Part shown: piece after piece, positions 7,018 to 39,927 of the stretch
Layout: each line of letters opens with the position of its first letter
Position numbering within the stretch: the first letter of the stretch is position 1
Position numbers and translations under genes: made by a program
The notes under the pieces: model-generated
Told to the model about the DNA's origin: nothing
Database searches by the model: none
Seen by the model: only the letters and a program-made list of their open reading frames with translations
Source of the DNA: Candidatus Binatia bacterium
GTDB taxonomy: Bacteria > Desulfobacterota > Binatia > UBA12015
Reading direction: 5' to 3'
NCBI GenBank assembly: GCA_029248525.1
Contig: JAQWJE010000049.1
Span: 549,836 to 613,835, forward strand
DNA: 64,000 nt

Positions 7018-7085
7018 GCTCGCTCCCGATCCTCCAGCAAGAAGGGGCACGACCGAAGTCGCGCCCCTTTCCACAAGAGATTTGG

Positions 7086-9017: not shown

Positions 9018-9166
9018 TTTGGATAATTCCCCTTATTGCGGAGTCGATAAGGTCCTCTCAAACGGCATCAGGGACGCAAAAGACGACGATCGACTCTAAA
9101 TTTTGGATTTTTGGTGGTTCCCCGGAAAGATAAGCACGATTTCCCGGGCGACAAGGTCCAAGTGAC

Positions 9167-9784: not shown

Positions 9785-9951
9785 CGAGAGGGTGCCTCGG
9801 AAAGGGGGCCCGTCAGGGGATTCCCATGTCAATTCAGGTCGCGCGCACGGCGAAAACCTAAGCACGGCATCAGCGTCTGTCAACGCGGCGGGGCGGATCA
9901 AGCCAAATGCGAAGCCTCGGTCCGAGCGGGGATGCGTGATAGACTCGGCGA

Positions 9952-11634: not shown

Positions 11635-11679
11635 TTACTAGCAGACTTCGGCCGACCCGGGGGAGCGGGTCGGTCCCGG

Positions 11680-12321
11680 CTAAAAAATCCCCGGGATCAG
11701 GCGCCAGGAATGTGCCTGATAGTCTCGATAAGCGCTGCCGAATTTGGTTTCGAGCACGGCTTCCTCATTGGCCATGCGCAAAAGGGTCAACGGCAACCAG
11801 ACACCGAGGGCAACGCCGAGTGCGAGGGGGCTTCGGACGGCCAAAGCCGTTCCGACGGCGATCAAAAGCAGACTTGCGTAGCTGGGATGGCGAATCCACG
11901 CGAACGGACCTTCCTCGACGAGCCGGTGCTCGTTGGCAACCAGAAGCTTGACCGTGAAATGTTCGCCCATAACGCGCGCGACCCACTGCCGAAGAACGAG
12001 GCCCCCGGTGATCAGAAGAGCGCCGCTGATCTCGATCAGACTCGGCCACCGGAGGTGCATGATCGGCTCACGGTTCTGGAAGGCGCCTGTTGCGAGAATG
12101 GCGAGAAACCCGAGCTGCATGCCCCAACCGGTCCAATCCCCACCATTGGCCGACTCACCGGCTTCGCGGCGACCCAGATCGAAGGAGGTGAAGCCGGCGG
12201 CCAACGCAAGGATGATGGCCTCGGGTGAAGCCATTTGTCCCGCCCAACCCACAAGGAGGGCGGCAAGCCCCCCTCGGACCCAGGGGATCATGGTCGCGAG
12301 GTTTGAAGTAGAAGAAGACAC
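11680..12321 (-). CDS. Isoprenylcysteine carboxyl methyltransferase (ICMT)/phospholipid methyltransferase-family membrane methyltransferase
   Basis: Multi-TM protein with the C-terminal ICMT/PEMT motif: EHRLVEEGPFAWIRHPSYASLLL. Confidence 0.6.
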   Translation of the reverse strand: MSSSTSNLATMIPWVRGGLAALLVGWAGQMASPEAIILALAAGFTSFDLGRREAGESANGGDWTGWGMQLGFLAILATGAFQNREPIMHLRWPSLIEISGALLITGGLVLRQWVARVMGEHFTVKLLVANEHRLVEEGPFAWIRHPSYASLLLIAVGTALAVRSPLALGVALGVWLPLTLLRMANEEAVLETKFGSAYRDYQAHSWRLIPGIF

Positions 12322-12361
12322 ATACCCCTCATAGCCGAAAACGGCACCCGCAATCGAGTCC

Positions 12362-13363
12362 TCAGCCGACTCGGAGGCTGGAGGCGCTCGACCCCGGGCG
12401 TCTGCCGAATCGACCGGGGATCGTGAGATGCTGCGCGGAACCGGGACGCCAGGCGCGGCGTTGGCGCGCCACGCGCTCGCGACTGGACCGGTCGAGCCAG
12501 GGCCATAAAAGTCCCGCTCCGAGCAGATTCAGGTAACGCAGCACAAGGTAGAGGAGGTAGCCTCCACCCCCGAGGCGCTTCCAGACAAATAGGTCTTCGG
12601 AGATGGCGGCCTGTTGTTGTCGGGCCGGAGATTGTCGCCGAACGTCGCCACCATGGGTGACGGTGGCCTCCGCACAGAACAGAACGGAGCCCCCGGCCTG
12701 CTGCATGCGATGACAAAAGTCGAGCTCTTCACAGTAGAGGAAATAGTCGTCATCAAAGCCCCCGATCTCTTGCGCCTTCCGGCGTCGAGTCATGAGAAAA
12801 GAGCCTTGTACGGCATCGGTGATATGGGTCACGCTCTGCTGCTTCCGGGCCGTCTCCGGAAATTTTTCGGCCAGCACCTGCGGTGCCAGTCGCCGCAGAA
12901 AGGGGCGCGCCAGGGGTTGGTTGGCCAGCGCAGCCATCGGACCCGGCCAACTGGGTCGGGGGAAGGCACTTCTTTGGAAAGATCCATCACGATCCCGGTG
13001 CGCACAGCCGACGATATCGATCGGCGTTGGCCAATCTCGGGCAGCAGACAGGCAGGTTTCAATCGCGGCATTCTGCAGCCGGGTATCGGGGTTGAGCAGA
13101 AGCACCCAGTCGTGTCCGGCAATATCCAACCCGAAGTTTACTGCAGCAGCAAACCCCGGATTGTCGGGTGCGGTCCGCCAATGAACGTCGGGGTGCGCTT
13201 CCAGCACTCGATTTCGAGCGTCGGGGTTTCCTTCGTTGTCGATGACGATCAATTCCAATTCGAGATTGGGGCTTCTGCGCCGCACGCAGCTCAAGGCACC
13301 GAGAACTTCGTCGGTGTCTCGGTAGTGGACGAGAATGACGCTGACGGTGTTCACGGCCGACAT
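12362..13363 (-). CDS. Glycosyltransferase family 2
   Basis: VSVILVHYRD...LELIVIDNEGNPD... is a GT2 DxD-type fold. The start is set at MSAVNTVSV, which overlaps the upstream GT2 stop. Confidence 0.75.
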   Translation of the reverse strand: MSAVNTVSVILVHYRDTDEVLGALSCVRRRSPNLELELIVIDNEGNPDARNRVLEAHPDVHWRTAPDNPGFAAAVNFGLDIAGHDWVLLLNPDTRLQNAAIETCLSAARDWPTPIDIVGCAHRDRDGSFQRSAFPRPSWPGPMAALANQPLARPFLRRLAPQVLAEKFPETARKQQSVTHITDAVQGSFLMTRRRKAQEIGGFDDDYFLYCEELDFCHRMQQAGGSVLFCAEATVTHGGDVRRQSPARQQQAAISEDLFVWKRLGGGGYLLYLVLRYLNLLGAGLLWPWLDRSSRERVARQRRAWRPGSAQHLTIPGRFGRRPGSSASSLRVG

Positions 13364-14370
13364 ATCGGACACCTTGCCGGTCGTGGTTGGCCGGTGGCGA
13401 ACCTTAGCGAATTCCACCAGACACCGGCTCCCCAGAAGAGATGAATGGTGGGAAAGATAATCAGCAACCGTCCGAGGTGGGCTGTCGAACTCGGAAATGC
13501 AGTGATCATGGCTGCGACGACTACAAGCGAGCAATAGCTCGCAATCAGCAGATAGCAGGCCGAGGCCGCGAGGGGCAGGAATACCCCGAGGCTCGCCGTG
13601 ACCATCAGTGCCGCCAAAAACAGAGGTGGCACAAGTTGGCGCCATTTCATCGAGGCCGGATGTTTCCAGAGGGTATAAGCTCGCCAGCGCCCGTAGCGAA
13701 GATATTGATGGCGCAAGGCCGCCCAGTTGGACCGGGGTGTGTAGGTGGAATGAATGCGCGGCGAGAGCAGAATCCGCCCCCCCGACTCGCTCAGACGAAT
13801 ATTGAGTTCGGAATCTTCGTTGGCGTGGGCTTGCTCGTCAAACCCGTCCAGGCCGCGCAAGGTCCCCGTGCGCCAGGCTCCGAGATAGACCGTATCGACG
13901 AACTTCTCCTGATCGGAATAATGAAAATGGGAATTGCCCAGACCGAAGGGCGTACTCGTCGCCAGCGAAATCGCTTCGCCCATCGGACTTGTCCCCCGGG
14001 GGTTCATCCGACCGCCGACATTTTCGGCACGCCCCTCGCCCAGGAGTTGAATGCAAGTCTCCACATAGTCGGCGGCAATCGTCGTACGCGCATCGACCCG
14101 GATGAAGAATTCCCCACGCGCTTCCTTGAGGGCGAGGTTCAACGCGGGTGCCTGGTAGCGCGCCGGATTCCGGAGCAGGCGCAGGCGAGGTTCGTTGCTC
14201 GAGATGCTCTCCACGATCAAGCAGGTCTTGTCCCGGGAGCCTCCGTCGACCACGAGAATCTCGATTTCGTGAGCCGGCATGGTTTGCGTGCATATGGCCT
14301 CGAGCGTTTGTCGGATGGAGGGTTCCTCGTCGAGAACCGGAATCGCGATCGTGACTCGAGGGGCGCTCAT
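13351..14370 (-). CDS. Glycosyltransferase family 2 with C-terminal TM segments
   Basis: VTIAIPVLDEEPSI...ILVVDGGSRDKT is GT2. The start at MSAPRV overlaps the GT4 stop as ATGA. Confidence 0.75.
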   Translation of the reverse strand: MSAPRVTIAIPVLDEEPSIRQTLEAICTQTMPAHEIEILVVDGGSRDKTCLIVESISSNEPRLRLLRNPARYQAPALNLALKEARGEFFIRVDARTTIAADYVETCIQLLGEGRAENVGGRMNPRGTSPMGEAISLATSTPFGLGNSHFHYSDQEKFVDTVYLGAWRTGTLRGLDGFDEQAHANEDSELNIRLSESGGRILLSPRIHSTYTPRSNWAALRHQYLRYGRWRAYTLWKHPASMKWRQLVPPLFLAALMVTASLGVFLPLAASACYLLIASYCSLVVVAAMITAFPSSTAHLGRLLIIFPTIHLFWGAGVWWNSLRFATGQPRPARCPICRP

Positions 14371-15569
14371 GCGTTGGCTCTTTTTGTTTCGACGACTTCC
14401 GCATAGGTCTGGGCGAGTTGGTCCCCGAGAGCATCCCATCCGTAGTGGCGTCGGACGAGGTCGAGTCCGGCCGCACCCATTTTTTCGCGGGCGTTGCGAT
14501 CTTGCAGGAGTGCCGCGATTGCTCGCACGAGTTCATCCGGGGTGTCCGCGATCTGCAAATCTCTGCCGTCGACGGCCTCGATGCCCTCCGCTCCGACGGT
14601 CGTGGAGACCACGGGGCGCCCCAAAGCCATCGCCTCGAGAATTTTGATGCGGATTCCGGATCCTACGCGGGTGGGTGCCAGAAAGACAGCACCGCGAAGA
14701 ATCTCGGGTCGCACGTCGTTTACGTAGCCGGCAATATCGATGCCCTTGTTTGCGGCATCTTCTCGAGCTTCGGCCGGAATCTCCTTACCGACGATGGTAA
14801 GCCGCGCCTCGGGCTGCACCCTCCGCATCTCCGGCCAAACCTCCCGGCACAGAAAGAGCAGTCCGTCGCGGGTAGGCCCCCAGGAGTAGTCACCTGTGGT
14901 GACGACACGTTGCTCGTCGGGCAAGCAGTCGGGGTCGGGTTGGAAAAACTCGAGATCGACGCCATCCGGCAATACTTTCACGGAGGCTTGAGGTGCAAGT
15001 TGATGGAGCTGCGCGGCATCGACTGCTGTGACCGCGAGGCATTGGTCGAATCGCGCACACGATATTGCCTCATATCGAGCAACAGCGCGGGACTGAGCGC
15101 GGATCAGGGGTCGAAGAAAGGGTCGAGCCGCTGTTTCGGCGTATCTCTCGAGAATCCTGCTTTCGACATTATGTTGGCGAAGGATCGTAGGGAGCTGAGG
15201 TGGGATAGCCTGGACGTAGGCGGCCGTATGCAGATGGTCGAAGTGGACGATATCTATGTCGCGGCTTTCGCAGAGATCGGCGGCCCGTTTTGCAACGGCG
15301 CGCGAATGAAAGCGCGACATAGCCAGGGGGCGTTCGGAGGTGGCAGCATCCAGCAGCGAGAAGATGGATCCGGTCCGGTCCTCGACAGTGACGATATGAT
15401 CGCAGAGGGGTGCCAAGGCGGGAATGCCTTCGCGCGGATCTTCCTGGCAGAGACTCAGCAAGGTCAATTCATGGTGGCGGCCGATCTGGCGCACCAACTG
15501 GTAGAGCGCCATCCGACCACCGTTGTCGGGCGGCCAGGGGAGCTGAGGCGTGATTTGCAGAACATGCAT
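14367..15569 (-). CDS. Glycosyltransferase family 4 (group 1)
   Basis: 400 aa; MHVLQITPQLPWPPDNGGRMALYQ... and a C-terminal GT4 EX7E-type region. Confidence 0.8.
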   Translation of the reverse strand: MHVLQITPQLPWPPDNGGRMALYQLVRQIGRHHELTLLSLCQEDPREGIPALAPLCDHIVTVEDRTGSIFSLLDAATSERPLAMSRFHSRAVAKRAADLCESRDIDIVHFDHLHTAAYVQAIPPQLPTILRQHNVESRILERYAETAARPFLRPLIRAQSRAVARYEAISCARFDQCLAVTAVDAAQLHQLAPQASVKVLPDGVDLEFFQPDPDCLPDEQRVVTTGDYSWGPTRDGLLFLCREVWPEMRRVQPEARLTIVGKEIPAEAREDAANKGIDIAGYVNDVRPEILRGAVFLAPTRVGSGIRIKILEAMALGRPVVSTTVGAEGIEAVDGRDLQIADTPDELVRAIAALLQDRNAREKMGAAGLDLVRRHYGWDALGDQLAQTYAEVVETKRANA

Positions 15570-15646: not shown

Positions 15647-18430
15647 TCAGAGTTCGGGAAGGACCGCCTCAAGTGCGGCGATGACGGCCTCCTGTGTGAA
15701 GGGTTTGGTGAGATAACCGCTTGCCCCTGATTGTTGCGCCAATTGGCGGTGTTTTTCACTGCCGCGTGAACTGCAGATAATGACGGGAATTTCCTTGAGC
15801 TGAGGATCGTTTCGGACCGCATGAAGGAGCTCGTATCCATGCATTCGCGGCATCTCCAGATCGGTAATCAGAACACGGTATTGCCCACTGCGCAGCCGGT
15901 CGAGAGCCTCGCGGCCGTCGACAGCGGTGTCCCCGGAAACGCCGGCGCCTTCCAGAAAATGATGCGCGAGTTTACGGACACTGATCGAATCTTCCGCCCA
16001 CAGGACGGCTGCTTCGGAGATTTCGGTTCGTTTCTCGAGTGGACGGTCCGCACCCGAGGGGTGTTCCCGCCAAGCGGCATGAAGTCGGCTGGCGTCGAGG
16101 GCAAAGACGACATTTCCATCCCCTCGCAGCGTCGCACTGCTGATGAACGGATGATTATGGAAAAGAGGGCCGAGCGGCCGAATTACCGCTTCCCGCTGCG
16201 ACTCGATCTTCTCCACGAGCAGAGCGACCCGAGTGTCGCCACAGCGCAGGATCACGGCGGTTTGTGGGTCGGCACCGGGCGGGCATCCCAGGAGACGGTG
16301 CAGCGGCAGTGCCGGAAGCCAATCGTTTTCGAAGGCAACGAGATAGCGTTCTTCCTGCTCCTGCAGATCCTCGGGATTGATATTGATCACGGTTTCGACC
16401 GGGCCCTGTGTCAGGGCGATGGTCTCCGTCCCCGCCCGCAACAGGAGGATTTGCTCAATCATCGAGGTCAGGGGGATATGAATTCGAATTTCGGTGCCCT
16501 GCTCGCGCTCGGCTTGAATCGTGACCGAACCTCTAAGTCGGGCAACCTCGGATGCGACGACATCCATGCCAACGCCGCGACCCGATACCGTGTCGGCTGT
16601 TTCCTGCGTCGAGAATCCCGGCTCGAAGATCAGGCCGGAGAGGTAATCAGGGTCGGACGAGCGGCTCTCGTCGAGGATTTTACGCTCTCGGGCGCGGTTC
16701 CGGATCGAATTGAAATCCAGACCGGCGCCGTCATCCTGAACACGAATCTCGACATGGCCGTGGCTTTGTTTCGCATCCAGTGTGATTCGCCCTGCAGCCG
16801 ATTTGCCCTGCTGGCGACGTTCCTCAGGCCGCTGAATTCCGTGGGCGACGGCGTTGCGGACGAGGTGGAGCAAGGGGCCGTATAGAGACTCGATCAGAGA
16901 TCGATCGAGTTGAACGTCCCCCCCATGGCATTCAAAAAGGACTTCTTTTCCGGACTGACGTGCCGCATCTCTTGCGGCATGGGCGAGTCGGCGGTGCAAG
17001 GAGTCCAGCGAAACCAGACGCATATCGCTCACAGTGCGTTGCAGGCTGGAGGTCACTTTGGAGATCTGACGCGACTCGTCGCCAAGAGAGTCAAGAAGCA
17101 GCCCCACCTGTTCGACGACCTCCGAGGTATCCGATGCGAGTTCGACCAGAGTACGGGTCAGGACGTTGAAGTCGTCATATTTATCAAATTCGAGATCCGT
17201 AAAAGCATCGAGGTGTGTAGGCCCGCGGGCCTCGCCTGTGGGTGTTGGTGTTGCCGCGGGTTTTGGCTGATGGAATTCAAAACTTCGAAACCCCTCAATC
17301 GTTTCCCCCAGTCGCATCCGGTCGACGCTGAGCTTCTCCCGCATTTCCTGAATGGCCGACATTCCATCGTCGAGTTGTGTCCGGCTGACCACCAATTCGC
17401 TGATGCGGCTCATTAGAAGATCCAGTCGGCTGCTGTGCACCCGAATCACGCCACCATCGGTATCTTTGGCCGGGGCGATGGGGGGCGGTCGTTGCGGCTG
17501 GGAAGCCGACTCCCCGGCCGTTCGAAGCGTGTTCTCCGCAGGGGGGGGCTGCGCGGTCATCTTCGCCAGGGCCGTCTCGACAAGATCTTTCGGATTCCGC
17601 AGGATCAGACTTTGGTGCTGTTGTTGTCTGGATTCGGCAATCAACCCGGCGGCCGAGTCGAGGATCTGCAGAAGACAATCGTGCAGATCCGTGGCGGGGA
17701 CGGATTTGCGCTTTTCCAGAACTTCTTCGAGCAGCGTCTCGCCGGCCTCCATCTGGGCGACAATCCCGGCTAGCTCCACGGCCGCCGCCGCACCTTTCAG
17801 CGTATGGAATTGGCGAAAAAGAGTCCGCAAAGGAGCGGGGTCACCGGGCTCCGCTTCCAGAAGAACCATTGCATTTTCCGCAGCCTCGAGCGCGGCATCT
17901 GCGTCGAGGCGGAAGGCGTCGAGCATCTCCCTGTCAAAGGCTTCCCTTTCGGGGTCGGGAGGCGCGGCAGGTGCGGTCTCGGTTGGCCCGTCGGATTCGC
18001 CTTGCCGAGCTGCCGTCGCCGCTATTTCGAGGGCTTCCTCGGGTGAGGGGAGACCGGCTTCAGCGCATAATTTGCACAGGCTGGGACTGATTTCAGAGAA
18101 AAAGGCATGGCTCAGAGGTAGTTCCGGACCCTGTTCCTCCGGGCCTTCGAATGCGGTCTGCAAATTGCGGCCGAGTTCACTCAAGTCCTCCATGCCGACA
18201 GTTGCCGCACTTCCCTTCACCGTATGGAATTGACTCCCAAGGGCAGCACAGGCTTCTTCCTGCTGGCCCGGATCGGCAAGGGCCGCGAGATATTGCTCAA
18301 GGCTCTGAAGGATTTCGGGGAGCTCTTCGCGAAATGTTTCTCGCAGGTCCTCAGCGAGAGAGCTCTCAAAGCTGTCCAGTTCCGGCGATATGGGCAGGGA
18401 TTTACTATGCGTTTCGTTTTCGGAATCCAT
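15647..18430 (-). CDS. CheA-CheY hybrid histidine kinase (two Hpt domains, HATPase, CheW-like domain, C-terminal receiver)
   Basis: Two Hpt motifs (FHTVKGSAATV and FHTLKGAAAAV), HATPase_c (VQDDGAGLD...GRGVGMDV), a CheW-like domain and a REC domain (VLITDLEMPRMHGYEL...YLTKPF). Confidence 0.9.
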   Translation of the reverse strand: MDSENETHSKSLPISPELDSFESSLAEDLRETFREELPEILQSLEQYLAALADPGQQEEACAALGSQFHTVKGSAATVGMEDLSELGRNLQTAFEGPEEQGPELPLSHAFFSEISPSLCKLCAEAGLPSPEEALEIAATAARQGESDGPTETAPAAPPDPEREAFDREMLDAFRLDADAALEAAENAMVLLEAEPGDPAPLRTLFRQFHTLKGAAAAVELAGIVAQMEAGETLLEEVLEKRKSVPATDLHDCLLQILDSAAGLIAESRQQQHQSLILRNPKDLVETALAKMTAQPPPAENTLRTAGESASQPQRPPPIAPAKDTDGGVIRVHSSRLDLLMSRISELVVSRTQLDDGMSAIQEMREKLSVDRMRLGETIEGFRSFEFHQPKPAATPTPTGEARGPTHLDAFTDLEFDKYDDFNVLTRTLVELASDTSEVVEQVGLLLDSLGDESRQISKVTSSLQRTVSDMRLVSLDSLHRRLAHAARDAARQSGKEVLFECHGGDVQLDRSLIESLYGPLLHLVRNAVAHGIQRPEERRQQGKSAAGRITLDAKQSHGHVEIRVQDDGAGLDFNSIRNRARERKILDESRSSDPDYLSGLIFEPGFSTQETADTVSGRGVGMDVVASEVARLRGSVTIQAEREQGTEIRIHIPLTSMIEQILLLRAGTETIALTQGPVETVININPEDLQEQEERYLVAFENDWLPALPLHRLLGCPPGADPQTAVILRCGDTRVALLVEKIESQREAVIRPLGPLFHNHPFISSATLRGDGNVVFALDASRLHAAWREHPSGADRPLEKRTEISEAAVLWAEDSISVRKLAHHFLEGAGVSGDTAVDGREALDRLRSGQYRVLITDLEMPRMHGYELLHAVRNDPQLKEIPVIICSSRGSEKHRQLAQQSGASGYLTKPFTQEAVIAALEAVLPEL

Positions 18431-18452: not shown

Positions 18453-19877
18453 TCAGACAGAAGGTGCGACCGAGTTTGGTTGCTGGATCGTCAGGCATAA
18501 TTCGAGAAGCGCCTCGCTCCGATGACGAGTCGTTTCCTCGGCGACTTCCAGCTTGCGGGCGACGTTTTCGATTTGTTCGAGGGCAGATTCAATCTGGTCG
18601 GCCGCGGCGCATTGTGACGTCGCCGTATGGGTGACCGCATCGACAGCGGCATGCGCGCTTTCGGCTTCCTGTCGCAGCTTCTGGATCGAGCGCTCGGCCG
18701 CCGCCGCTGCAGCCGAGTGCATTTCAATCCGCTCGCCTTGCCGGTCCATTCCACCGACGGCTTCGCCAATATCATTCTGAATTCCGCGAATCAGCCGATC
18801 GACTTCCTTGGCTGCCTGAGAGGCTTTCTCCGCAAGCTTGCGCACCTCCTCGGCGACGACGGTAAAACCGTGGCCCTGCTCTCCGGCCCTCGAGGCTTCG
18901 ATGGCTGCGTTCAGCGCGAGCATATCGGTCTGTGCCGACATTTTGGAGATGGTGCCGGTGATCGCGGCTATCTGCATGGAACGCTCACCCAGCCGTTTGA
19001 TCTTGACGGTCGCAGCCCGGGTTTCCCGCTGGAGTCCCTCCATGCCCGCATTGAGGTCGGAGATAGCGGACTGGCTCTGCTTGCCGGCCTGCTCGGCGAG
19101 GCTGCTGGAGTCGATGGCCTCCTGGCATAAACTCGTGAGTCGCTGGTTCTGGACCTTGAGTTGATCGGCATCCTCCGAGGTGGCGGCACAGACCTCCCTT
19201 TGGGCCAGAGCATCGCCGTGCGCAGCATGGGCCGCCAGCCGAACCTGCTCAGCCGAATGTCCGATCCCCTGTGATATATTCGCGAGGTCCTCATCGCGAG
19301 CACCGAGCTCCTCGAGGGTCTGGTTGAGCCGTAGCCCCAGCTCTGCAAAATCTCCCTTGAGATCGCATCGAGAGTCCCGTTCACCGGCCTGATGCCGAGA
19401 CAGGGTGTTTGTCATGGATTTGATGGCTCTCTCGACAACGATTCGATGCTCGACGAGGTGCTGGTGCTGGAGATCCCAGCTGTCCAGAATACGATTGACC
19501 GCCCGACAGGATTCAGCTGCAGGCCCGGAGCCCTCGGCGGGTAGTCGGGTTTCATAATGTCCGCGTTGCATCTTGCGCAGAGCGGCCGGTAGATCCCGCA
19601 GGCCTCCCGCGAAGGACTGCCAGAGGTGTCGGCCGAGAACCCAGCCGAAAACGCTAGCCAGGATTGCCGAGATCCCCGTCGCCAAACTCAGGGAGAGGAC
19701 GCCCGGCTCCATCAGAAACCCTTCGAGCACGAGGAAGGCCAATATCCCCTGCATGCCTGCAATGATCATGGCCAGGAGGGCGATTTTCCCCGCGCCTTCT
19801 CGACTCCAATCGTGATCCTTGCGTGAGGCAGACGCGACTCCTGGAGCCAGGGGGGTTAATTTCTCTGCAGTGGCCAT
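18453..19877 (-). CDS. Methyl-accepting chemotaxis protein: two closely spaced TM helices, no periplasmic domain, HAMP, MCP signalling domain
   Basis: MCP highly conserved domain ([38 protein letters not shown]). The N-terminus has two TM segments separated by only a few residues. Confidence 0.9.
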
Positions 19878-20359
19878 GGCTCACCTCTCTCGTCTGTCGT
19901 GATTGCCGCAAAGTCGGCCCGAATAACCTCCGCCACCTCGCGGAGAAAAAGCTGTCCGTCCAAAATAATGGTCTGGCTGTCGCCTCGGCGCACCACACCC
20001 CGAATCAGGTGCTGTGGCATCCCGAGTTCGTGAGGGGGTAGGGAGTGAATCTCCCAGGGCGCGAAATGTTGTACGGCAAGAACTTCGTCGACACCGGCTG
20101 CGACTCGCAGGTCGCCTTCGGCGAGAACGATCAGGCTCCGGGGACATTCGTCGCCCGAAGGTTGGCGGTGGAGGAAAGTCGCCAGTGAGATCAGTGGCAG
20201 GATTTCTCCACGCAGATTGAAGGCACCCAGAAGTCCGGCGGGCGCACGTGGAATTTCCGTATACCGCCGTCGCTCGACGACTTCGCCTGCGACCTCGGTA
20301 GAGAACGCGAATTGGGTCTGGTTGCTGCGAAAGAGGCAATGGTCGCCGTGCGCATTCAT
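19856..20359 (-). CDS. cheW: Chemotaxis coupling protein CheW
   Basis: 167-aa CheW-like domain ([19 protein letters not shown]...[20 protein letters not shown]). Confidence 0.85.
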
Positions 20360-21456
20360 AGCTCGATGACCTCGGGCAGACCCGCTTCCGTCGGAGGAGA
20401 GGCTGTTCCTGTCAGGGCGGGAATGGTGTTCAGCGACTCATGGCAGGGCAGATCGGCATCGGCGGGATCCTCGTTCTCGTTGGATCCCAGACGACAGAGG
20501 CAACTGCGTTCCGGAAGTCTCTGCAGGGCCCGGGTCAGCGTTTCATCCGGAGGTCCGTCGAGAAGAAGGACTTCCGGTTGCAGAATCGCGGCGAGGTGGG
20601 GCAGGAGTTCGAAATGGCGGTAGAGGAAAATCCATCTGGATTTTTCGGCCTCGGAGATCTCGCTCTCGAGGGCCTCTGTCACGGATGCTGCCGAGGTCGA
20701 GACCAGAATGCGAGAGGGAACCACTGGAACTCGAAGATATTGTCCCTGCGTGCGGGCGAGGAGCAGGCTCGCCTGACAAAGCGCGGTATGCGCCGCGACG
20801 AGTTCGGCCCCGGGATCGATAATTTGCCCTTGGGGGTTCAGGTGGATGTTCCGAGGGATCCTCTCACGCCGCCGGCGAAGTGTCAGGACTTCAGAGGTCG
20901 CCTTGTCGAGCAGTTCGAGAATGGACTGGTTATCGGTTGTGACGCTTCGTTGGCTGGCCAGCGAGGCGGTCTCCTCCAGCGATTGGAGGAGGTGGCGAAA
21001 CCCGACTTCGACGGACTGCAATCCGCCGCGTTGTGGCGCCGATCTTCCCGGCGCAGGGCGATCGACCCGAGGAGGTGCTGTGTGGCGATTTTCTGCCAAT
21101 GCATGGGAGACAACACTCAGAACAACCTTGGGCTTGAAAGGCTTCGTGATGTAGCTGACGACATTCTGCGCATCCTCGTACGCCTGTCGAATCGAGGTTC
21201 CCTTGGCGGATACCAGCACAACAGGTGTGGATTGCGTGAGCGGAATTTCTTCCAATGCCGCGCAGACGTCGGGCCCCCTCATATCGGGCAGGACGTAGTC
21301 GAGAAGGATGAGCTGCGGATCGAAATTGGCCGCAGCCTCGAGCGCATCTTTCCCGGTAGCCGCGAGTTGAAGATCGTAGCCCTCGGGTTTGAGGATCATC
21401 TCCAACGCGCGTCGAATTGTCAGTGAATCGTCGACGATCAGAATACGAGCGCTCAT
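20356..21456 (-). CDS. Response regulator: N-terminal CheY-like receiver fused to a ~240-aa C-terminal domain of unknown function
   Basis: The REC domain is complete (ILIVDDS...LILLDYVLPDM...YITKPF). The C-terminal half has no recognisable motif. Its ATG overlaps the upstream stop and its stop overlaps the cheW start. Confidence 0.8.
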   Translation of the reverse strand: MSARILIVDDSLTIRRALEMILKPEGYDLQLAATGKDALEAAANFDPQLILLDYVLPDMRGPDVCAALEEIPLTQSTPVVLVSAKGTSIRQAYEDAQNVVSYITKPFKPKVVLSVVSHALAENRHTAPPRVDRPAPGRSAPQRGGLQSVEVGFRHLLQSLEETASLASQRSVTTDNQSILELLDKATSEVLTLRRRRERIPRNIHLNPQGQIIDPGAELVAAHTALCQASLLLARTQGQYLRVPVVPSRILVSTSAASVTEALESEISEAEKSRWIFLYRHFELLPHLAAILQPEVLLLDGPPDETLTRALQRLPERSCLCRLGSNENEDPADADLPCHESLNTIPALTGTASPPTEAGLPEVIEL

Positions 21457-21968
21457 GAATGGCGCTCTCGTACACGCTGCGCAAGGAGGTCGGGAGAAAA
21501 GATCATCAATGGTGTTTCCTCACGAAATTGCAGATGGATTCCGAACGAACCATCGTCCAATCGGGCGAGCGGGACGATCGGGTACGCGCCCAGGTCCTCA
21601 ATGCCGACAAATGTCTCGGCTCCGACAGCGACGGTGCCGATCGTGGTCTGGACCAGCGCGGTCCAACCGTGGGTGCGTGGCCCGGGAGCCGGACGAGCAC
21701 CGCTGATCTCCGTCAGTTCCAGTCGGGGAAAATCTGCAGGGGGCGGCGGTCCATCGGATCGACTCTCGGTATCCGTATGATGAAAAATCCGCGTAACGGT
21801 CCCCATCGCGAGCCCGACCGGGCAGCCTTCGCTTTCCAGGATTACCAACAGATTGTCGGTGGCCAGTTGTTCATCTGCCTCATGCACGCTCACGATTCCC
21901 CCGTGGAAGTTGCCCTGACTGCTTCTTTCCCACTCGCCCTGCGATGCTGGATCGGAAGTCCCCGGCAA
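21453..21968 (-). CDS. Hypothetical protein, first gene of the chemosensory operon (possible degenerate CheW-like domain)
   Basis: 171-aa ORF with a TTG start at 21968 (start uncertain). There is weak resemblance to CheW segments (LLVILESEGCPVGLAMGTVTRI). Coding is supported mainly by the ATGA coupling to the next gene. Confidence 0.35.
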   Translation of the reverse strand: MPGTSDPASQGEWERSSQGNFHGGIVSVHEADEQLATDNLLVILESEGCPVGLAMGTVTRIFHHTDTESRSDGPPPPADFPRLELTEISGARPAPGPRTHGWTALVQTTIGTVAVGAETFVGIEDLGAYPIVPLARLDDGSFGIHLQFREETPLMIFSPDLLAQRVRERHS

Positions 21969-22071
21969 GGACTTGAGCGCTTTCTCGTCTCCGCCGGGAT
22001 GGTCAAGAAGCAGGTCGGGGCGTCCGATGGGAATTTTGTCGGCGTCGGGCCGATGCGGAACGGTTGGAGAA

Positions 22072-23856
22072 TTTATGTACGGAGACCAGGTTGGAGAGGT
22101 TGTTGAGGGCGGCGGGGGCTCGGAGTCGACCAGATTTTTGGTGATCTCGCTCCTGCAGACTCTGGTGCAACTGCCATCGGGGTTTAACGATTCATCCCGC
22201 GATTCGGCTTTCGATTCGGCTCTGTCGGTCCTGCAGGATCGGTTGGGTCTTTCCGGCGTCTATCTTTTGGGGCCGCGCTGCCGCTCGGGACTGGCCGCAG
22301 GAGGGATTCCCGCAGAAGTCGAGGATATTCTTTTTGAGGGGGAAGCTACGGGGGAGTCGCTGTTGGGGCGGGTCTCCAGAGAGCAGCGTATTTTCCTGCT
22401 CGGTCGACGCAGCACCGAGCCCTGCATGAATCGAATCCGCCAGCTGGATCTGGATTGGCAGGCCGTCGCGCTGGTTCCTCTTCGACCAGCATCCGGCGCG
22501 TCGGTAATTTTGGTGCTTGCCGCATCTGACGGCACGCTCCTCTCTCCTGAAATTCTTGCGACCTTGCACCCGGTCTTTCGCTTTATCGCGGGGTCTCTGA
22601 ATCTTTCCGATTCAGGCGAGCCATCGCCCGAGGGAGCGATGCCAGGGGTCGAGGACCTCGAGGTCGAACTCGAGGCGCTTCGATCACGCAACACCGAGGT
22701 GGAGGATCTCCTCCGCGTGGCGGGCGAGGCAACCGCTGCCGGCGAAGCAGGGATGCGGCTCGAGATCGAGGATGCGCGCGTCCAGATCGCGGAGCTGGAG
22801 ACCTCCCTTGCCAGCGCGACAGCGAAGCCCGCGGAGGTTCCCTGCGAAGATTGTATGGTTCTGCGCCGCAAGGCCGCGGCGAACGAGTTACGCATGCAGA
22901 CTCTGGAGCAGGATCTGGCCGAGCTTCGCCTGCTCGCCGATGTCGCGGAAGTCGCTTCTGTTGCGATCGATGCGCCCGCGAACAAGGTGGCGCTCTCTCC
23001 GGTGATTGCTCTCGAGGACGAGCCGGTAGAAGCGGTGGCCCTTGGCGCCATGGCCGAAGCTGCGGTCGCCGAGTTGGCGAGTGTCGCTGAACCCGAGAGG
23101 ATGGATCCGCCAGACGAACTGCCGGGGCCGGTTCTGGTTCCCGAGGCGGCGAAGGTCGCTGGCGCTCCGGAGCCCTGGGTTCTCTGTTGTGCCGAGGGTT
23201 CGCGTCCGATGTTTGAAGAACTCGCCAGATTTGCCGGTGATCAAGCGATGCCGATCTTTTCATCGGAGGATCTCGAAATATCGCCGGGCCGACGCCTCCT
23301 GCTGGTGAACCTGCTCGTGGATGATCCTGCCGAGATAGTTGCGGCGATGGAGGAATCTCACCTTGATCTGCGGCTTCTCGCCTATGCCGCCCGAGGCAAG
23401 AGTGGCGCTGCATTGGGAGAAATTGGATGGTTGGCCTCATCGCTTCCCGCGGAGGAGGCGCTGGCCGAGATCCGAAACCATCATGGGCTGCCGGAACGAA
23501 CACTGCTGGTCAGCGCGCGACTACGCGAAATGGCGCCCCTGCGAGAAGCTCTGACCAATGAAGGGAGTTCGGTGGCCATGGCTTGTGATGCGCGGCAGGC
23601 TCTCGACCTCCTCGAGATTGTCCAGCAACCCGATGCGGTGATCCTCGATTTGGCAGTGGAGGGAGCGGTGACGCTCGCTCTCGCCGCACGCCTCTATCGG
23701 GAAAACCCTTCGACAGGGTTGCAGATTTTCCTCCTCGCGCCGGAGAAGTCGAGGCTGCCGGAGTTTCGCGCCGATACTGCATGGGCCGAGGTTTTGCGCC
23801 CTTTCGGGATCCCCGACCTGCAGCGTTTGATCGCGCCCTGGGCCCGATTGCCCTGA
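22072..23856 (+). CDS. Hypothetical regulatory protein: GAF-like N-terminal domain, Ala/Glu-rich coiled coil, two receiver-like (pseudo-receiver) domains
   Basis: The ORF track gives 21973 (TTG). An ATG at 22072 with GGAGA 5-6 nt upstream is preferred. A GAF-like block (VYLLGP...IFLLGRRS...VALVPL) is followed by heptad-rich AELETSLASATAK...LRMQTLEQDLAELRLLADV. REC-like segments lacking the N-terminal acidic pair follow (LLLVNLLVDDPAEI; AVILDLAVEGAV...FLLAPEKS). Confidence 0.5.
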   Translation, partial: FMYGDQVGEVVEGGGGSESTRFLVISLLQTLVQLPSGFNDSSRDSAFDSALSVLQDRLGLSGVYLLGPRCRSGLAAGGIPAEVEDILFEGEATGESLLGRVSREQRIFLLGRRSTEPCMNRIRQLDLDWQAVALVPLRPASGASVILVLAASDGTLLSPEILATLHPVFRFIAGSLNLSDSGEPSPEGAMPGVEDLEVELEALRSRNTEVEDLLRVAGEATAAGEAGMRLEIEDARVQIAELETSLASATAKPAEVPCEDCMVLRRKAAANELRMQTLEQDLAELRLLADVAEVASVAIDAPANKVALSPVIALEDEPVEAVALGAMAEAAVAELASVAEPERMDPPDELPGPVLVPEAAKVAGAPEPWVLCCAEGSRPMFEELARFAGDQAMPIFSSEDLEISPGRRLLLVNLLVDDPAEIVAAMEESHLDLRLLAYAARGKSGAALGEIGWLASSLPAEEALAEIRNHHGLPERTLLVSARLREMAPLREALTNEGSSVAMACDARQALDLLEIVQQPDAVILDLAVEGAVTLALAARLYRENPSTGLQIFLLAPEKSRLPEFRADTAWAEVLRPFGIPDLQRLIAPWARLP

Positions 23857-30864: not shown

Positions 30865-31740
30865 ATGGCAGCCATCCAAGTTCCGATCGACGGTGCGACA
30901 CGAATCGTGGGCATCATCGGAGATCCTGTCGAACATTCACGATCGCCCGCCATGCATAACGCGGCGTTTCGCGCGCTGGGAATTCCATGGGCCTATATTC
31001 CCTTCCCGGTGTACGGACGGAATGTCGGTGCGGCGGTGCGTGGTGTGCGGGCTCTCGGGATTACCGGGATCAACGTCACCATTCCTCACAAGGAAGCGGT
31101 TCTCCGTCATCTCGATGAGTTGACCGAGACCGCGCGGGCTTGTCGAGCGGTAAATACGATCATCAATCGGCGCGGCACGCTGGTGGGCGACAATACGGAT
31201 GCACCCGGTCTGACACGTGATTGGTCCGAAATTGGTTTGTCCGAAAAAGTCGACCTTGGGGTGGTCCTGGGTGCAGGAGGCGCTGCTCGTGCGGCTGCTG
31301 TGGCCCTGAGCAAACGGGCAAGGCGGATTGTCATCGCGGCGCGGCGTTCTCCTCGCGCTCGCGCTCTGGCGCGAGACATGAATCGGATTTCTCACGTTCC
31401 CGTCACAGGCGTGCAGCTCAGCGAACTGGCGCCGGAGCACCCCGCGTCAGCCGACCATCTGGGCGGCGCGGCGATTGTGGTCAACGCGACTTCCGTCGGG
31501 ATGAACGGCGAAGATTTCTTCCCGCTGGATATTGCCGCGACGCCGCGAGATTGTCGTTTCTACGATCTGATCTACACCGCGAACCGGACGCCCTTTCTGG
31601 CGATGGCAGCGTCAAGCCGTCGGCCCGTCTTCAACGGTTTGGGGATGCTCCTCCATCAGGGTGCGCTTGCTTTCGAGGAATGGACAGGTCAGCCCGCACC
31701 TCTGGATGTGATGCGCCGGGCTCTTCGCGCTCGTAAATGA
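30865..31740 (+). CDS. aroE: Shikimate dehydrogenase
   Basis: IVGIIGDPVEHSRSPAMHNAAFRALGI...NVTIPHKEAV...VGDNTDAPGL...LGAGGAARA. Confidence 0.85.
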   Translation: MAAIQVPIDGATRIVGIIGDPVEHSRSPAMHNAAFRALGIPWAYIPFPVYGRNVGAAVRGVRALGITGINVTIPHKEAVLRHLDELTETARACRAVNTIINRRGTLVGDNTDAPGLTRDWSEIGLSEKVDLGVVLGAGGAARAAAVALSKRARRIVIAARRSPRARALARDMNRISHVPVTGVQLSELAPEHPASADHLGGAAIVVNATSVGMNGEDFFPLDIAATPRDCRFYDLIYTANRTPFLAMAASSRRPVFNGLGMLLHQGALAFEEWTGQPAPLDVMRRALRARK

Positions 31741-33497
31741 AAAAATTTCAACGCGGCGGAAGACGTCGCGAGCCCCCCCCGCGGCCATCTGACGATCTCG
31801 AGCCTTGTTTGCGGGCGCTCGATGGTCGATCCTACGGCGATTACCGTTGTCTCGAGGGCGATCCTTTCTCGCTGGGCTCGTTCACTCTGACATTCGATCG
31901 TGTGCAAGCAGACCCCTTTGCGCCACCAAGTCGTCTGAGCGTGGAAATCCCGACGCTCTGGCTGGATTTGCCGGCGGAAACCCGCAGCACCCTCGATCAA
32001 TGTCGCGCGTCCGGAGATTTCCTGCACCGAGCCTTGCGGGTAAGCATGTGCGCCGGCGCAGGCGCCGGTGGGTCGCGCGCATCAGGTGTCCTCGGGATGG
32101 TGGCCGTCGGTCAGGAAGTCCTCGACCGCAGCGCGGTATTGGTCCGCGCCGACGGCAGCTGCCGAATACGACTCACAGCCGGACTCCCGGCCACGGGTCG
32201 CCGGATTCGTGGTCGCGCCGCTGTGTCGATGTTTCTCGACAGCTTGCCCCGGATCCTGAACGAAGCCATCAGCACCGAGGCACTGGACCATGCAGCTTTG
32301 AGGCATCAGGTTGCGGTTGTCGAAGATCAGGTTTTCCTGCGGCAGGAGTTGCGGAAGCGCGGGTTGGTCGCCTTCCTCGGAGACGGCGCAATTCTGCCGC
32401 GAGCGAGCGGTATCGACGATCGTCCACTCGTATCCGGGTTGCCGATTCTGGCGCCGCCGTCTCTAGCCATTGAAATCGAGTTGCCCCACGCCGGTCGAAT
32501 CCGTGGGATGGGGATTCCGGAGGGCGTCACGCTGATTGTCGGCGGGAGCTATCACGGCAAGTCGACTCTCCTGCAGGCGATGGCGCGCTCGGTTTGGGAT
32601 CAGATCCCCGGAGACGGCCGCGAAAGGTGCGTGTCACGGAGCGAGACCGTCTGCGTCCGTGCCGAAAATGGTCGATCGATCGCTGGTGTCGATTTACGAC
32701 CGTTTCTGAGAAATCTTCCGCTTGATCGGCCGACCGAAAACTTCTGTACCGCGGACGCTTCGGGAGCGACTTCGCAGGCGGCAGCGGTTCTTGAGTCTAT
32801 CGAAGCCGGTGCCACGGCCTTGCTGGTGGATGAGGATACCGCAGCCACCAATTTCATGATCCGAGACGCGCGAATGCGCCGCCTGGTGCCGTCGAGCGAG
32901 GAGCCGATTACCCCCTACCTCGACCGTGTGCGCCAGTTGGCTGAAGAGAAAAAAGTTTCTTCGGTTCTCGTCGTGGGCGGGGCGGGGGATTATCTGGATG
33001 TGGCCGATACGGTGATTCGCATGGCGAGCTATGCGCCCTGCGAGGTGACGGAGGAGGCCCACCGCATTGCCGGTGAGCTGCCCGCGAGCATATCCGAGGG
33101 ACCGCAAGCGCCGGGCGAGTGGCCCCTTGCGGCGCTTCGCTATCCGCAGCCGCGCTCGTTTGTCGCATCGGGTCGGGGTCGATCGGCGCGCGTCCGGCGA
33201 GGGGATGGCTACCGGCTTGCCTTCGGGGATCAGACGCTTGATCTTTCGGCAGCCGAACAATTGGTCGACCCGGGACAGGTGGCGCTGATCGGCGATCTGC
33301 TTCTGTATCTGGGTCGCGAGCTCTGTGACGGCACGGTCACGCTTACCGATCTTCTCGCTTCGGTCGGAGAGGATCTTCGGTGCCGTGGCGTCGGTGCTCT
33401 GGCCGCGCCCGGGTTTGGCGACCGGGCCGCTGTCCGTCCGCTCGATCTGGCCTTTGCCATCAATCGGCTGCGTTCTCTCGTGTGCAGCAGGGCCTGA
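31737..33497 (+). CDS. Predicted ABC-class ATPase of unknown function (pfam09818-like)
   Basis: 586 aa. N-terminal LDGRSYGDYRCLEG...RVQADPFAPPSRL, Walker A GGSYHGKSTLLQA and Walker B LLVDEDTAATNF. Its ATG overlaps the aroE stop. Confidence 0.55.
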   Translation: MKKFQRGGRRREPPPRPSDDLEPCLRALDGRSYGDYRCLEGDPFSLGSFTLTFDRVQADPFAPPSRLSVEIPTLWLDLPAETRSTLDQCRASGDFLHRALRVSMCAGAGAGGSRASGVLGMVAVGQEVLDRSAVLVRADGSCRIRLTAGLPATGRRIRGRAAVSMFLDSLPRILNEAISTEALDHAALRHQVAVVEDQVFLRQELRKRGLVAFLGDGAILPRASGIDDRPLVSGLPILAPPSLAIEIELPHAGRIRGMGIPEGVTLIVGGSYHGKSTLLQAMARSVWDQIPGDGRERCVSRSETVCVRAENGRSIAGVDLRPFLRNLPLDRPTENFCTADASGATSQAAAVLESIEAGATALLVDEDTAATNFMIRDARMRRLVPSSEEPITPYLDRVRQLAEEKKVSSVLVVGGAGDYLDVADTVIRMASYAPCEVTEEAHRIAGELPASISEGPQAPGEWPLAALRYPQPRSFVASGRGRSARVRRGDGYRLAFGDQTLDLSAAEQLVDPGQVALIGDLLLYLGRELCDGTVTLTDLLASVGEDLRCRGVGALAAPGFGDRAAVRPLDLAFAINRLRSLVCSRA

Positions 33498-33644: not shown

Positions 33645-35399
33645 GTGGGCAGCGTAGAATCATTGGTCAAGCGGGGTGGCGGTACCGAGCGTAATGCGCA
33701 GGTTCCGACCAGCCGTGTCGGGGAGCTTCTCCTGCGACAGGGTCTGATTGCCGAGGGCGACCTTCGCCTGGCGCAATCTCGTTTGCGTGAAGCTGGTGGT
33801 GCACTGACGACTCATATTGTGCGCCAATGTGAGATCACGGAGGCGGATCTCCTGACGGCCTTGCAGGAAGAATATCATCTTCCGGTCGTCGATCCCGGAT
33901 CGCTGGAACTTGCGGATGAGTTGGTGGATGTTTTGCCCGCAGTAATCGCGATCAAATTTCAGGTTGTCCCGGTTAATTTGAGCCGAACGACGCTGACGCT
34001 GGCGATGGCCGACCCCTCCAACCTGGCTGCCATCAATGAAGTCAAATTTCTCACCGGATTCGATGTCCGTGCAGCCATTGCGAGTCCGACATCGGTCGAG
34101 AAATGTATCGAGCGCCACTACGAGCAGAACGTCAATTATGGCGACGTTCTCTCCGAACTTGGTGATGAGGATATGGAAGTCGTTCGAGCGGACGAAGACT
34201 TCGACCTCAAACAGTTGGAAAAAGCCACGGAAGAGGCGCCGGTCGTCAAGCTGGTCAACGCGCTTTTAGCCGATGCGATCAAGAAAAGAGCTTCGGATAT
34301 TCACATCGAGCCGTACGAGAAATCTCTGCGCGTTCGCTTTCGTGTGGATGGCGTTCTGCAAGAGATCATGCAGCCGCCGCTGAAATTGAAGAACGCGATT
34401 ACCTCTCGGATCAAGGTGATGGCCTCTCTCGATATTGCGGAGCGCCGGTTGCCGCAGGACGGACGTATCAAGGTGAAATTGGCGCAGGGGCGTGAGATCG
34501 ATCTACGTGTCTCGACCTTGCCGACCCTTTTCGGTGAAAAAGTGGTTCTGCGAATCCTCGACAAGAATGGCGTGCAACTCGACCTGGAAAAGCTCGGATT
34601 CACAGGCCAATCGTTGGCGCATTTTCAGGAGGCGATCGCCCAGCCCTACGGGATGATTCTCGTTACGGGCCCGACAGGGTCGGGCAAGACCACGACTCTG
34701 TACTCGGCGCTTGCGCAATTGAATGATGCGGGCACCAATATCTCGACAGCCGAGGATCCCGTCGAATATAATCTGCCCGGCATCAATCAGATGCAGACCC
34801 ACGAGGATATCGGTCTGAATTTTGCGGCCGCGCTGCGATCGTTTCTTCGTCAGGATCCCGATGTGATCATGGTGGGTGAGATCCGCGATTTTGAAACCGC
34901 CGAAATTTCGGTGAAAGCTGCACTGACCGGGCATCTTGTCTTTTCGACAGTGCATACCAACGATGCGCCTTCGACGGTCAATCGTCTGCTGAATATGGGC
35001 ATCGAACCGTTCCTGATCGCTTCTTCGGTGAATTTGATCATGGCGCAACGTCTGGCTCGAAGTGTTTGTCCAAAATGCCGCGAGCCCTATGAATTACCGA
35101 TGCAGGCGTTGATTGACCTTGGCGTCCCTGCCGAGGAAGCCGCCCCTGTCCAGACATGGAAAGGGAAAGGCTGCTCGCATTGCGGGGATACAGGTTATCG
35201 CGGGCGCACCGCGCTCTACGAAGTGATGCGGGTCACCGATGAGCTCCGGGAGTTGGTGCTTGCCGGAGCGACAGCCACCGAACTCAAGCAACAGGCCGTT
35301 CAGGATGGAATGGTCACCCTGCGGCAGGCGGGGATCACGAAAATCTCCGCCGGGGAGACCACGGTGGAAGAGGTCATGCGCGTCACTATGGCCGACTGA
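33645..35399 (+). CDS. pilB: Type IV pilus assembly ATPase PilB (GspE family)
   Basis: N-terminal T2SE_Nter domain (VGELLLRQGLIAEGDL...VPVNLSRTTLTLAMADPSN...VKFLTGFDV) closely resembles Myxococcus PilB. Walker A GPTGSGKTTTLY and a tetracysteine motif (CPKCR...CSHCGDTG) follow. GTG start; a TTG at 33663 is also possible. Confidence 0.9.
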   Translation: MGSVESLVKRGGGTERNAQVPTSRVGELLLRQGLIAEGDLRLAQSRLREAGGALTTHIVRQCEITEADLLTALQEEYHLPVVDPGSLELADELVDVLPAVIAIKFQVVPVNLSRTTLTLAMADPSNLAAINEVKFLTGFDVRAAIASPTSVEKCIERHYEQNVNYGDVLSELGDEDMEVVRADEDFDLKQLEKATEEAPVVKLVNALLADAIKKRASDIHIEPYEKSLRVRFRVDGVLQEIMQPPLKLKNAITSRIKVMASLDIAERRLPQDGRIKVKLAQGREIDLRVSTLPTLFGEKVVLRILDKNGVQLDLEKLGFTGQSLAHFQEAIAQPYGMILVTGPTGSGKTTTLYSALAQLNDAGTNISTAEDPVEYNLPGINQMQTHEDIGLNFAAALRSFLRQDPDVIMVGEIRDFETAEISVKAALTGHLVFSTVHTNDAPSTVNRLLNMGIEPFLIASSVNLIMAQRLARSVCPKCREPYELPMQALIDLGVPAEEAAPVQTWKGKGCSHCGDTGYRGRTALYEVMRVTDELRELVLAGATATELKQQAVQDGMVTLRQAGITKISAGETTVEEVMRVTMAD

Positions 35400-35537
35400 T
35401 CGAGGTTGCTCCATTCAAGAAACCATCAGCGGCTACCGAAGGATCAGACAGAAATTGGGTCGAGTTGAGGGATGCATGAGTGCTGCTCAATGCAGGGTTG
35501 GCACGAACAAGCGGACGATTCGGGGAGGGATTTCAAA

Positions 35538-36653: not shown

Positions 36654-36661
36654 GGTTTCTG

Positions 36662-39831: not shown

Positions 39832-39927
39832 ACGGGAGGGATTGGAAGCCGCGCGCCGATTCGCGTCGGCAAAATAGACCGCGGTGGTAGCGCAACGGCG
39901 CTCGGTACCGACACTGGAGGATGGCAA

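Follow-up and report, generated by a model that had tools for sequence, protein, structure and literature searches.

The stretch of DNA analysed here (the window) comprises 64,000 nucleotides of contig JAQWJE010000049.1 (positions 549,836 to 613,835 of the forward strand, assembly GCA_029248525.1) from Candidatus Binatia bacterium. It carries a + strand gene for an uncharacterised protein, hereafter the window protein, in which a GAF-like domain, a coiled coil and two degenerate receiver-like domains follow one another. The gene is transcribed divergently from a chemosensory (che-like) gene cluster, and this head-to-head arrangement is conserved in related loci. In the following sections we describe the gene and the architecture of its product, the cluster that it faces, the role that these features suggest and the known systems with which it may be compared.

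The longest open reading frame (ORF) spans 627 codons on the + strand, from a TTG at 21973 to the stop codon ending at 23856. A search of 5.8 billion proteins returned 11 relatives at 43-99% identity, without any named homolog among them, and the ORF is a real, conserved gene. The closest relative, P0001, is 593 amino acids (aa) long and 99% identical to the window protein. In 10 of the 11 close homologs the start is a methionine equivalent to residue 35 of the long ORF (ATG 22075); the gene call of P0002 begins further upstream, at the in-frame ATG 22027, and P0010 is an N-terminally truncated homolog. A GGAG sequence lies at 22066-22069, 5 nt 5' of ATG 22075. Because of the homolog starts and this upstream GGAG, the true product is most likely the 593-aa protein encoded by 22075-23856, to which all residue numbers refer, with a small residual chance that translation begins at ATG 22027. 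The original prediction had held that the two divergent starts are only 4 bp apart, that at least one of them needed to be re-assigned, and that 22072 was a suitable position. It was correct in principle as to the re-assignment, but 22072 falls on a TTT codon, 3 nt from the ATG, and the 4-bp spacing is an artefact of taking the longest ORFs: the neighbouring gene encodes 144 aa in relatives and the actual intergenic region measures 187 bp.

Neither Pfam nor NCBIfam contains a model specific to the window protein, its tandem C-terminal module or its wider family, and a search of the literature found no paper describing the family. A scan of genome collections for the gene retrieved one locus, in a Candidatus Binatia metagenome-assembled genome (MAG), which is the sole organism label among the related loci. 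The features of the gene and its upstream region are as follows, with the evidence in brackets (AF2, AlphaFold2; pLDDT, predicted local distance difference test):

21888..22074, between the divergent genes: intergenic (promoter/leader) region, 187 bp (alignment of 7 relatives)
22075..23856, + strand, stop codon 23854-23856: most likely coding sequence of the 593-aa protein (homolog starts, GGAG at 22066-22069, P0001)
22129..22602, + strand: predicted GAF-like domain, residues about 19-176 (Pfam, AF2, Foldseek)
22648..22956, + strand: coiled coil of two long helices, residues 192-248 and 258-294 (AF2, heptad score, profile)
22840..22854, + strand: P-C-x-x-C motif (PCEDC), residues 256-260, at the turn between the two helices (alignment, AF2)
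22957..23169, + strand: linker rich in Ala, Pro and Glu, residues 295-365 (pLDDT below 50, composition)
23041-23076, + strand: short amphipathic linker motif L-G-x-[IM]-A-x-A-A-x-A-x-L, residues 323-334 (alignment)
23170..23490, + strand: domain 1, predicted reduced pseudo-receiver, residues 366-472 (AF2, domain-1 profile)
23308-23310, + strand: Asn412, at the acceptor-Asp position of domain 1 (alignment with PleD D2)
23491..23853, + strand: domain 2, receiver fold, residues 473-593 (AF2, profiles, hhalign)
23647-23649, + strand: Asp525 (AVILDLAV), at the acceptor position of domain 2 (hhalign, alignment)

Domain architecture of the window protein

The protein ends in a C-terminal module (residues 366-593). 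A full-length AF2 model built from 12 sequences reached a pLDDT of 56 and was poor for residues 453-574; it was replaced by a run on residues 360-593 with 79 sequences, which gave two packed alpha/beta domains at a pLDDT of 91.4 and a predicted template modelling score (pTM) of 0.89. Among the folds that this module matches are the tandem-receiver structures 3luf and 3mf4 and that of PleD. Profile searches against PDB were informative only after widening with distant relatives, the full-length family profile having returned nothing but insignificant matches of coiled-coil type (YbaB, mt-IF3) among PDB sequences.

Domain 1 is assigned as a pseudo-receiver with moderate confidence. Bar one de novo designed protein, its profile matches nothing but receiver domains in PDB, and it scores best with D2 of PleD (residues 156-267, E 1e-3), a pseudo-receiver that is the second receiver of that protein and cannot be phosphorylated. 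Asn412, near-invariant in the 79 sequences, aligns with the acceptor position of PleD D2, and 'VN' is found in both proteins. A Pfam search with 25 domain-1 sequences gave nothing meaningful. Since a comparison of domain 1 with domain 2 by hhalign detects no similarity, an internal duplication cannot be claimed from the sequence.

Domain 2 has the (beta/alpha)5 fold of CheY. The widened family profile matches PDB receivers at E 1e-9 to 1e-5 over the beta3 segment 'PDvvLIDLaLPrGeG' and aligns the acceptor region with PhoB and RpaA. Furthermore, hhalign relates domain 2 to the canonical receiver of REC-X, a protein of the divergent cluster, with 90% probability and E 1.7e-6, and places S480/A481 on D9/D10, D525 on D53 and an alanine on S83 of REC-X. 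Among the residues of a canonical receiver, the acceptor Asp is thus kept and the acidic pair, the Thr/Ser and the Lys are lost. In orthologs the position of the acidic pair reads S-E, S-A, S-R, S-G or S-S, and the Lys position is occupied by Arg575 here ('RPF' for 'KPF' in close homologs) and by Gly or Ala in distant orthologs, so that most relatives have lost the Lys. None of the 79 sequences departs from Asp525 or Pro519, variation at D505, R507 and Q508 is slight, and the domain displays a nearly invariant A-x-D-x-R-Q-A motif.

The conserved aspartate raises the question of whether the window protein is a true response regulator, in which Asp525 would be phosphorylated by the Hpt of the CheA-REC kinase encoded nearby, rearranging domains 1 and 2 as in PleD REC1/REC2 and altering oligomerisation or partner binding. 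The invariance of Asp525 and Pro519 across the 79 members would fit such a role, as would the receiver-typical beta3 motif PD-hhh-D-h-x-h-P-x-G-x-G, which aligns with PhoB, RpaA and bacteriophytochrome receivers, and the presence of 3luf, 3mf4 and PleD among the fold matches. In addition, some members of the wider family keep one acidic residue after beta1 (VS[ED]) and some pass the Pfam Response_reg model. In the window protein, however, Ser-Ala occupies both Mg2+-binding acidic positions, Ala replaces the Thr/Ser and the Lys is not retained; FrzS, which is without the same residue set, cannot autophosphorylate (PMC9811614); and two canonical receivers, those of REC-X and of the CheA C-terminus, are already present in the cluster. 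Given the loss of Mg2+ site, Thr/Ser and Lys, and given that the cluster has two canonical receivers of its own, phosphorylation of Asp525, the main mechanistic alternative to the adaptor role proposed below, appears unlikely.

The N-terminal domain gives a sub-threshold match to Pfam GAF_2 (residues 75-198 of the 627-aa ORF, E 1e-3, 19.7 bits against a cut-off of 28.6), and the window protein itself stays below the curated GAF thresholds (PF01590 and PF13185). GAF and GAF_2 matches recur in distant full-length homologs, one of which (P0013) exceeds the PF01590 cut-off with 25.1 versus 22.4 bits. In the full-length AF2 model this domain has a moderate pLDDT of about 70-80, and a Foldseek comparison with PDB matches it to GAF structures at E 2e-5 to 4e-3 and target-normalised TM values of 0.6-0.68. 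These structures include 3p01 (0.68), 4g3v, 4g3k, 3trc, 5w10, 3ci6 and others, with the GAF domains of Nlh1, Nlh2, PtsP and Lcd1 named among them; the related LuxR-type autoinducer-binding fold is matched as well. A GAF-like fold, with an antiparallel sheet flanked by helices, is accepted for the N-terminal domain.

Between the two ends lies a coiled coil of about 100 aa, modelled by AF2 as two long helices. Its heptad score of 0.376 compares with 0.268 +/- 0.054 for shuffled sequences, 17 of 500 of which reach the observed value, and the widened family profile matches SMC, keratin and designed antiparallel coiled coils in PDB. In the P-C-x-x-C motif at the helix turn, P256, C257 and C260 do not vary among the 12 close family members; the alignment of distant homologs does not retain the CxxC. 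The placement of the motif recalls the zinc hook of Rad50, which we take to be a resemblance only. The linker that follows contains the motif of residues 323-334, of which L323, M326, A327, A329, E333 and L334 are invariant in close members. This motif is recognisable in distant homologs, orthologs at about 30% identity, amid an acidic linker that is otherwise variable, and may form a docking helix.

Taken together, profile and structure evidence agrees with the three-part architecture that had been read from the letters of the DNA: an N-terminal GAF-like region, a central coiled-coil segment and two C-terminal receiver-like folds, the first without the acidic pocket and the second retaining the Asp of ILDLAV but not the DD pair. 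The alignments put Asn412 at the acceptor position of the first and Ser480-Ala481 at the DD pair of the second.

The divergent chemosensory cluster and its conservation

The genes on the other side of the intergenic region, and the larger blocks that flank the locus, are listed below.

21453..21887, - strand: 144-aa protein, first gene of the cluster (length in relatives, GTG 21887)
20356..21456, - strand: REC-X, a canonical receiver with an uncharacterised C-terminal domain of about 240 aa
19856..20359, - strand: CheW (Pfam CheW, E 2e-22)
18453..19877, - strand: methyl-accepting chemotaxis protein, MCP (Pfam MCPsignal, E 1e-33)
15647..18430, - strand: CheA-CheY hybrid kinase with two Hpt, dimerisation, HATPase, CheW-like and REC domains (domain search)
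5914-15569, - strand, downstream of cheA: dnaJ-dnaK-grpE, polysaccharide deacetylase, ICMT-type methyltransferase and glycosyltransferases (GT) of the types GT2, GT2 and GT4
33645-51093: complete type IVa pilus (T4aP) locus with pilB (N-terminal MshEN), pilT, pilC, pilD and PilY1

The same head-to-head arrangement, with the 144-aa protein, REC-X, CheW, MCP and CheA-REC, is found in every related locus with enough flanking sequence, of which genome and metagenome collections supplied about 20 distinct ones (L001-L013, L019, L021, L022, L024-L033, L036, L037 and L041). Across them the identity of the window protein's counterparts falls to about 29% and that of glycyl-tRNA synthetase (GlyRS) from 96% to 64%. 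Physical linkage to che genes is thus conserved in the GAF-bearing subfamily.

The 187-bp intergenic region is itself strongly conserved, with a mean column identity of 80% across 7 relatives whose window-protein counterparts are about 50% identical. It contains the invariant blocks GGATCGG, GAGGACTTGAG, TCAAGAA and TCGGC, and an invariant inverted repeat CTTGA-N26-TCAAG. Comparison with Rfam gave no match, RNAalifold found no supportive covariation, and inspection by eye only revealed no convincing sigma-54 promoter of the form GG-N10-GC. The region may represent a shared operator or promoter.

Beyond the close relatives, an exhaustive HMMER search of 1.84 billion representatives yielded 175 clusters, formed at 50% identity. 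Full-length relatives make up about a dozen of them, and the remainder, proteins of 200-1500 aa, share only the last ~190 residues. Long coiled-coil proteins of this wider family that carry the tandem module lie inside che clusters in four of six contexts examined; these four clusters are non-orthologous and differ in gene order:

L014: member after CheR, a ChpA-like CheA and CheB, with a faint FimL_C match on the kinase
L040: member after CheA-REC and an MCP, beside a paralog
L042: member between CheW, a REC protein and a split Hpt kinase
L043: member after CheW, CheR-TPR, CheW, CheA-REC, CheB and an MCP

In L040 (5982-10702) and L043 (9001-14805), a second large paralog with a C-terminal receiver-like domain flanks the coiled-coil/tandem-receiver protein, and the proteins of these two loci may work in pairs.

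Adjacency to che genes could also be a matter of history, the window protein being an independent GAF signalling or scaffold protein that happens to reside in a conserved gene-order block (che, glyS, murB, PPDK, the last encoding pyruvate phosphate dikinase). Indeed, glyS is downstream in nearly all loci, murB, PPDK, aroE and pilB are syntenic in several, and two wider-family members (L016 and L017) lie away from che genes. With glyS usually downstream, part of the pattern stems from synteny across the lineage. Linkage to the che genes nevertheless persists where glyS is not adjacent (L030) or is separated by an insertion (L037), and in L005 and L008, which have a rearranged opposite flank. 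Moreover, the C-terminal module occurs within four non-orthologous che clusters, and conservation in the intergenic region exceeds that of the coding sequence, which is consistent with co-regulation. We consider this explanation very doubtful, and the suggestion that the window protein is a dedicated partner of the che operon gains from the divergent synteny of about 20 loci, down to about 29% identity, and from the recurrence of the module in other che clusters.

Several members of the cluster have features of their own. The first gene could extend to a maximal ORF of 171 codons (to 21968), and its product has 144 aa in every relative. One ortholog shows a faint Pfam match to CheW, and hhalign gives a co-linear alignment with CheW at E 7e-4 but 26% probability; the protein may be a degenerate CheW-like component, comparable to FrzB. 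It also carries an invariant G-C pair. In REC-X, a strongly conserved receiver with invariant D9, D10, D53, S83 and K105 is followed by a Pro-rich linker and by the poorly conserved domain of ~240 aa, which has no Pfam match and ends in an invariant E-V-[VI]-x-L. Read by sequence, the MCP has two hydrophobic segments near its N-terminus and no sizeable periplasmic domain. Neither CheB nor CheR is encoded adjacent to the divergent cluster, and NCBIfam models assign no subtype such as Pil-Chp or Dif to the window protein, CheA, MCP, CheW or the 144-aa protein.

The gene cheA is directly followed by those for a GT4, two GT2 enzymes, a methyltransferase of the ICMT type and a polysaccharide deacetylase, and then by grpE-dnaK-dnaJ; synteny of this GT block with the che cluster is seen in L001, L002 and L008. 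On the other side, the gene for the window protein is followed by glyS, murB, an acyltransferase gene, PPDK, aroE and a gene for an ABC-class ATPase. The latter, a P-loop protein of the ABC_ATPase/MRB1590 type (31737-33497), lies between aroE and pilB, a position kept in L002 and L005. The pilus locus begins 10 kb downstream of the window protein's gene, behind glyS, murB, PPDK and aroE, and also holds a PAS-sigma54 activator (PilR-like), a TPR protein, and GspH/FimU-like and N-methyl minor pilins.

Proposed role of the window protein

Because its gene is always head-to-head with a che-like cluster, a role as an accessory adaptor of the che-like pathway is the most likely one for the window protein. 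On balance we favour, with a little better than even confidence, a cytoplasmic, probably dimeric and phosphorylation-independent adaptor that serves as an accessory component of the divergent pathway, which would be of the alternative cellular function (ACF) or pilus type. The tandem receivers would dock without phosphorylation, as the FrzS pseudo-receiver does, either with the output machinery or with a member of the pathway, be it REC-X or CheA through its Hpt or REC. Dimerisation or positioning of the protein would fall to the coiled coil, and the GAF-like domain would add a second input, from a ligand or another protein. Likely outputs would be the type IVa pilus machinery, whose genes lie 10 kb downstream, and/or the products of the GT (exopolysaccharide) genes that follow cheA. 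The cluster could equally control these directly adjacent GT genes, rather than motility polarity.

A number of observations weigh against this view. All of the proposed functions draw on architecture and gene neighbourhood. The invariance of Asp525 in 79 of 79 sequences would be unexpected if the residue were functionless, and leaves room for phosphotransfer. The full-length AF2 model is too poor to show the inter-domain geometry or dimerisation, which stay putative. Domain 1 has a reduced topology (b1-a1-b2-b3-a3-b4-b5-a in the AF2 model), in which the alpha2 and alpha4 helices expected of a true receiver are missing; by sequence it is tied to receivers only weakly, at E 1e-3, and it bears no detectable similarity to domain 2. 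Finally, part of the che adjacency may be inherited gene order, as glyS, murB, PPDK and pilB are syntenic as well, and the wider-family members of L016 and L017 are not near che genes.

ACF and pilus-type chemosensory pathways are common and their routes to outputs are mostly obscure; the understood cases (FrzS with SgmX, HmpF, FimL) each depend on lineage-specific scaffold proteins. We propose tentatively, as a possibility less likely than not, that the tandem module defines an undescribed and widespread coiled-coil family whose members, in several uncultured lineages, would be dedicated to CheA-REC pathways as their output or adaptor components. Within such a family, the GAF-bearing form with its zinc-hook-like PCxxC motif would be one lineage-specific version. 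The family would add a recurrent solution to the problem of output, namely a coiled-coil protein with two degenerate receivers as a conserved C-terminal pair. It would also be a natural test case for an invariant 'acceptor' Asp in a receiver otherwise stripped of its active site, since this residue may have a non-canonical role, such as docking of Hpt or acting as a phosphate sink without the Mg2+-site residues. In practice, work is limited by the lack of a cultured member of the host lineage (Binatia-like MAGs).

Comparison with known systems

FrzS and AglZ, motility regulators of Myxococcus xanthus to which the original prediction had likened the window protein, begin with a pseudo-receiver at the N-terminus and continue into a very long coiled coil at the C-terminus (PMC9811614). 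In terms of mechanism FrzS is the closest precedent. Its pseudo-receiver is without Asp12, Asp13 and Thr87, does not autophosphorylate and provides a phosphorylation-independent dock for the pilus activator SgmX (PMC9811614). The window protein resembles them in combining a CheY-fold pseudo-receiver with a coiled coil, in its link to a chemosensory system with a CheA-CheY fusion and, as regards FrzS, in the degeneration of the same three positions in domain 2. In contrast to FrzS and AglZ, its receivers are C-terminal and tandem, its coiled coil measures about 100 aa versus several hundred, a GAF-like domain is present at its N-terminus, and a degenerate DNA-binding domain is absent. With the domain order reversed and no homology to FrzS found beyond the generic receiver fold, the window protein falls outside the FrzS/AglZ family and the comparison holds as an analogy only.

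A second precedent is HmpF, an SMC-like coiled-coil protein reported only in cyanobacteria and encoded beside the Hmp/Tax3 che-like systems, which control its localisation and hence the activity of type IV pili (PMC12288463). Like HmpF, the window protein is a coiled-coil protein adjoining a che-like system with two response regulators and a hybrid CheA (PMC12288463), and a T4P locus, dnaK-grpE-dnaJ and polysaccharide genes are found nearby. Seen together, the che-like cluster, the polysaccharide genes, DnaK and T4P bring to mind the Hmp/Hps/DnaK1 theme of cyanobacteria. The GAF and receiver domains of the window protein have not been reported for HmpF, and the two proteins are set apart here by description only.

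These precedents suggest that the window protein might be a landmark of the FrzS/AglZ/HmpF kind at the cell pole or pilus base. Its coiled coil would then direct it to a pole or to the pilus motors, and the che-like pathway would relocate it in order to switch type IV pili. Coiled coil and pseudo-receivers do occur together beside a che-like cluster with CheA-REC and no adjacent CheB or CheR, all the genes of a complete T4aP locus follow at a distance of 10 kb downstream, HmpF offers a coiled-coil protein localised by neighbouring che-like systems, the FrzS pseudo-receiver docks a pilus activator, and one wider-family member (in L014) follows the ChpA-like kinase with the faint FimL_C match. 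Set against these parallels are the short coiled coil, the reversed domain order, the absence of FrzS homology beyond the generic fold and the restriction of reported HmpF homologs to cyanobacteria. Moreover, glycosyltransferase rather than pil genes are contiguous with cheA, the pil locus being located behind glyS, murB, PPDK and aroE. A landmark function is rather improbable in our view.

Regarding the C-terminal module alone, the closest parallels are REC1-REC2 of PleD and the structures 3luf and 3mf4, in which two CheY-like domains are likewise packed together and one of them is without the acceptor Asp. Domain 1 shares with PleD D2 an Asn at the acceptor position. The arrangement differs from that of PleD in that the pseudo-receiver comes first, no GGDEF output follows, the Asp-bearing domain is itself degenerate, and domain 1 does without alpha2 and alpha4.

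At the level of the pathway, ACF clusters are a further point of reference, as CheR-TPR fusions and regulators with GAF or extra REC domains are reported as their hallmarks (PMC3447774). The window protein combines GAF and REC domains, and the cluster of L043 carries a CheR-TPR fusion. ACF regulators are presumed to be phosphorylatable and usually have an enzymatic or DNA-binding output, unlike the window protein, which has two degenerate receivers and no recognisable output domain. Its likeness to FrzS, AglZ and HmpF would thus be one of function, by analogy, and not of family membership; the theme to which it belongs, that of pseudo-receiver and coiled-coil scaffolds and of multidomain regulators of ACF or pilus-type systems, is already known.

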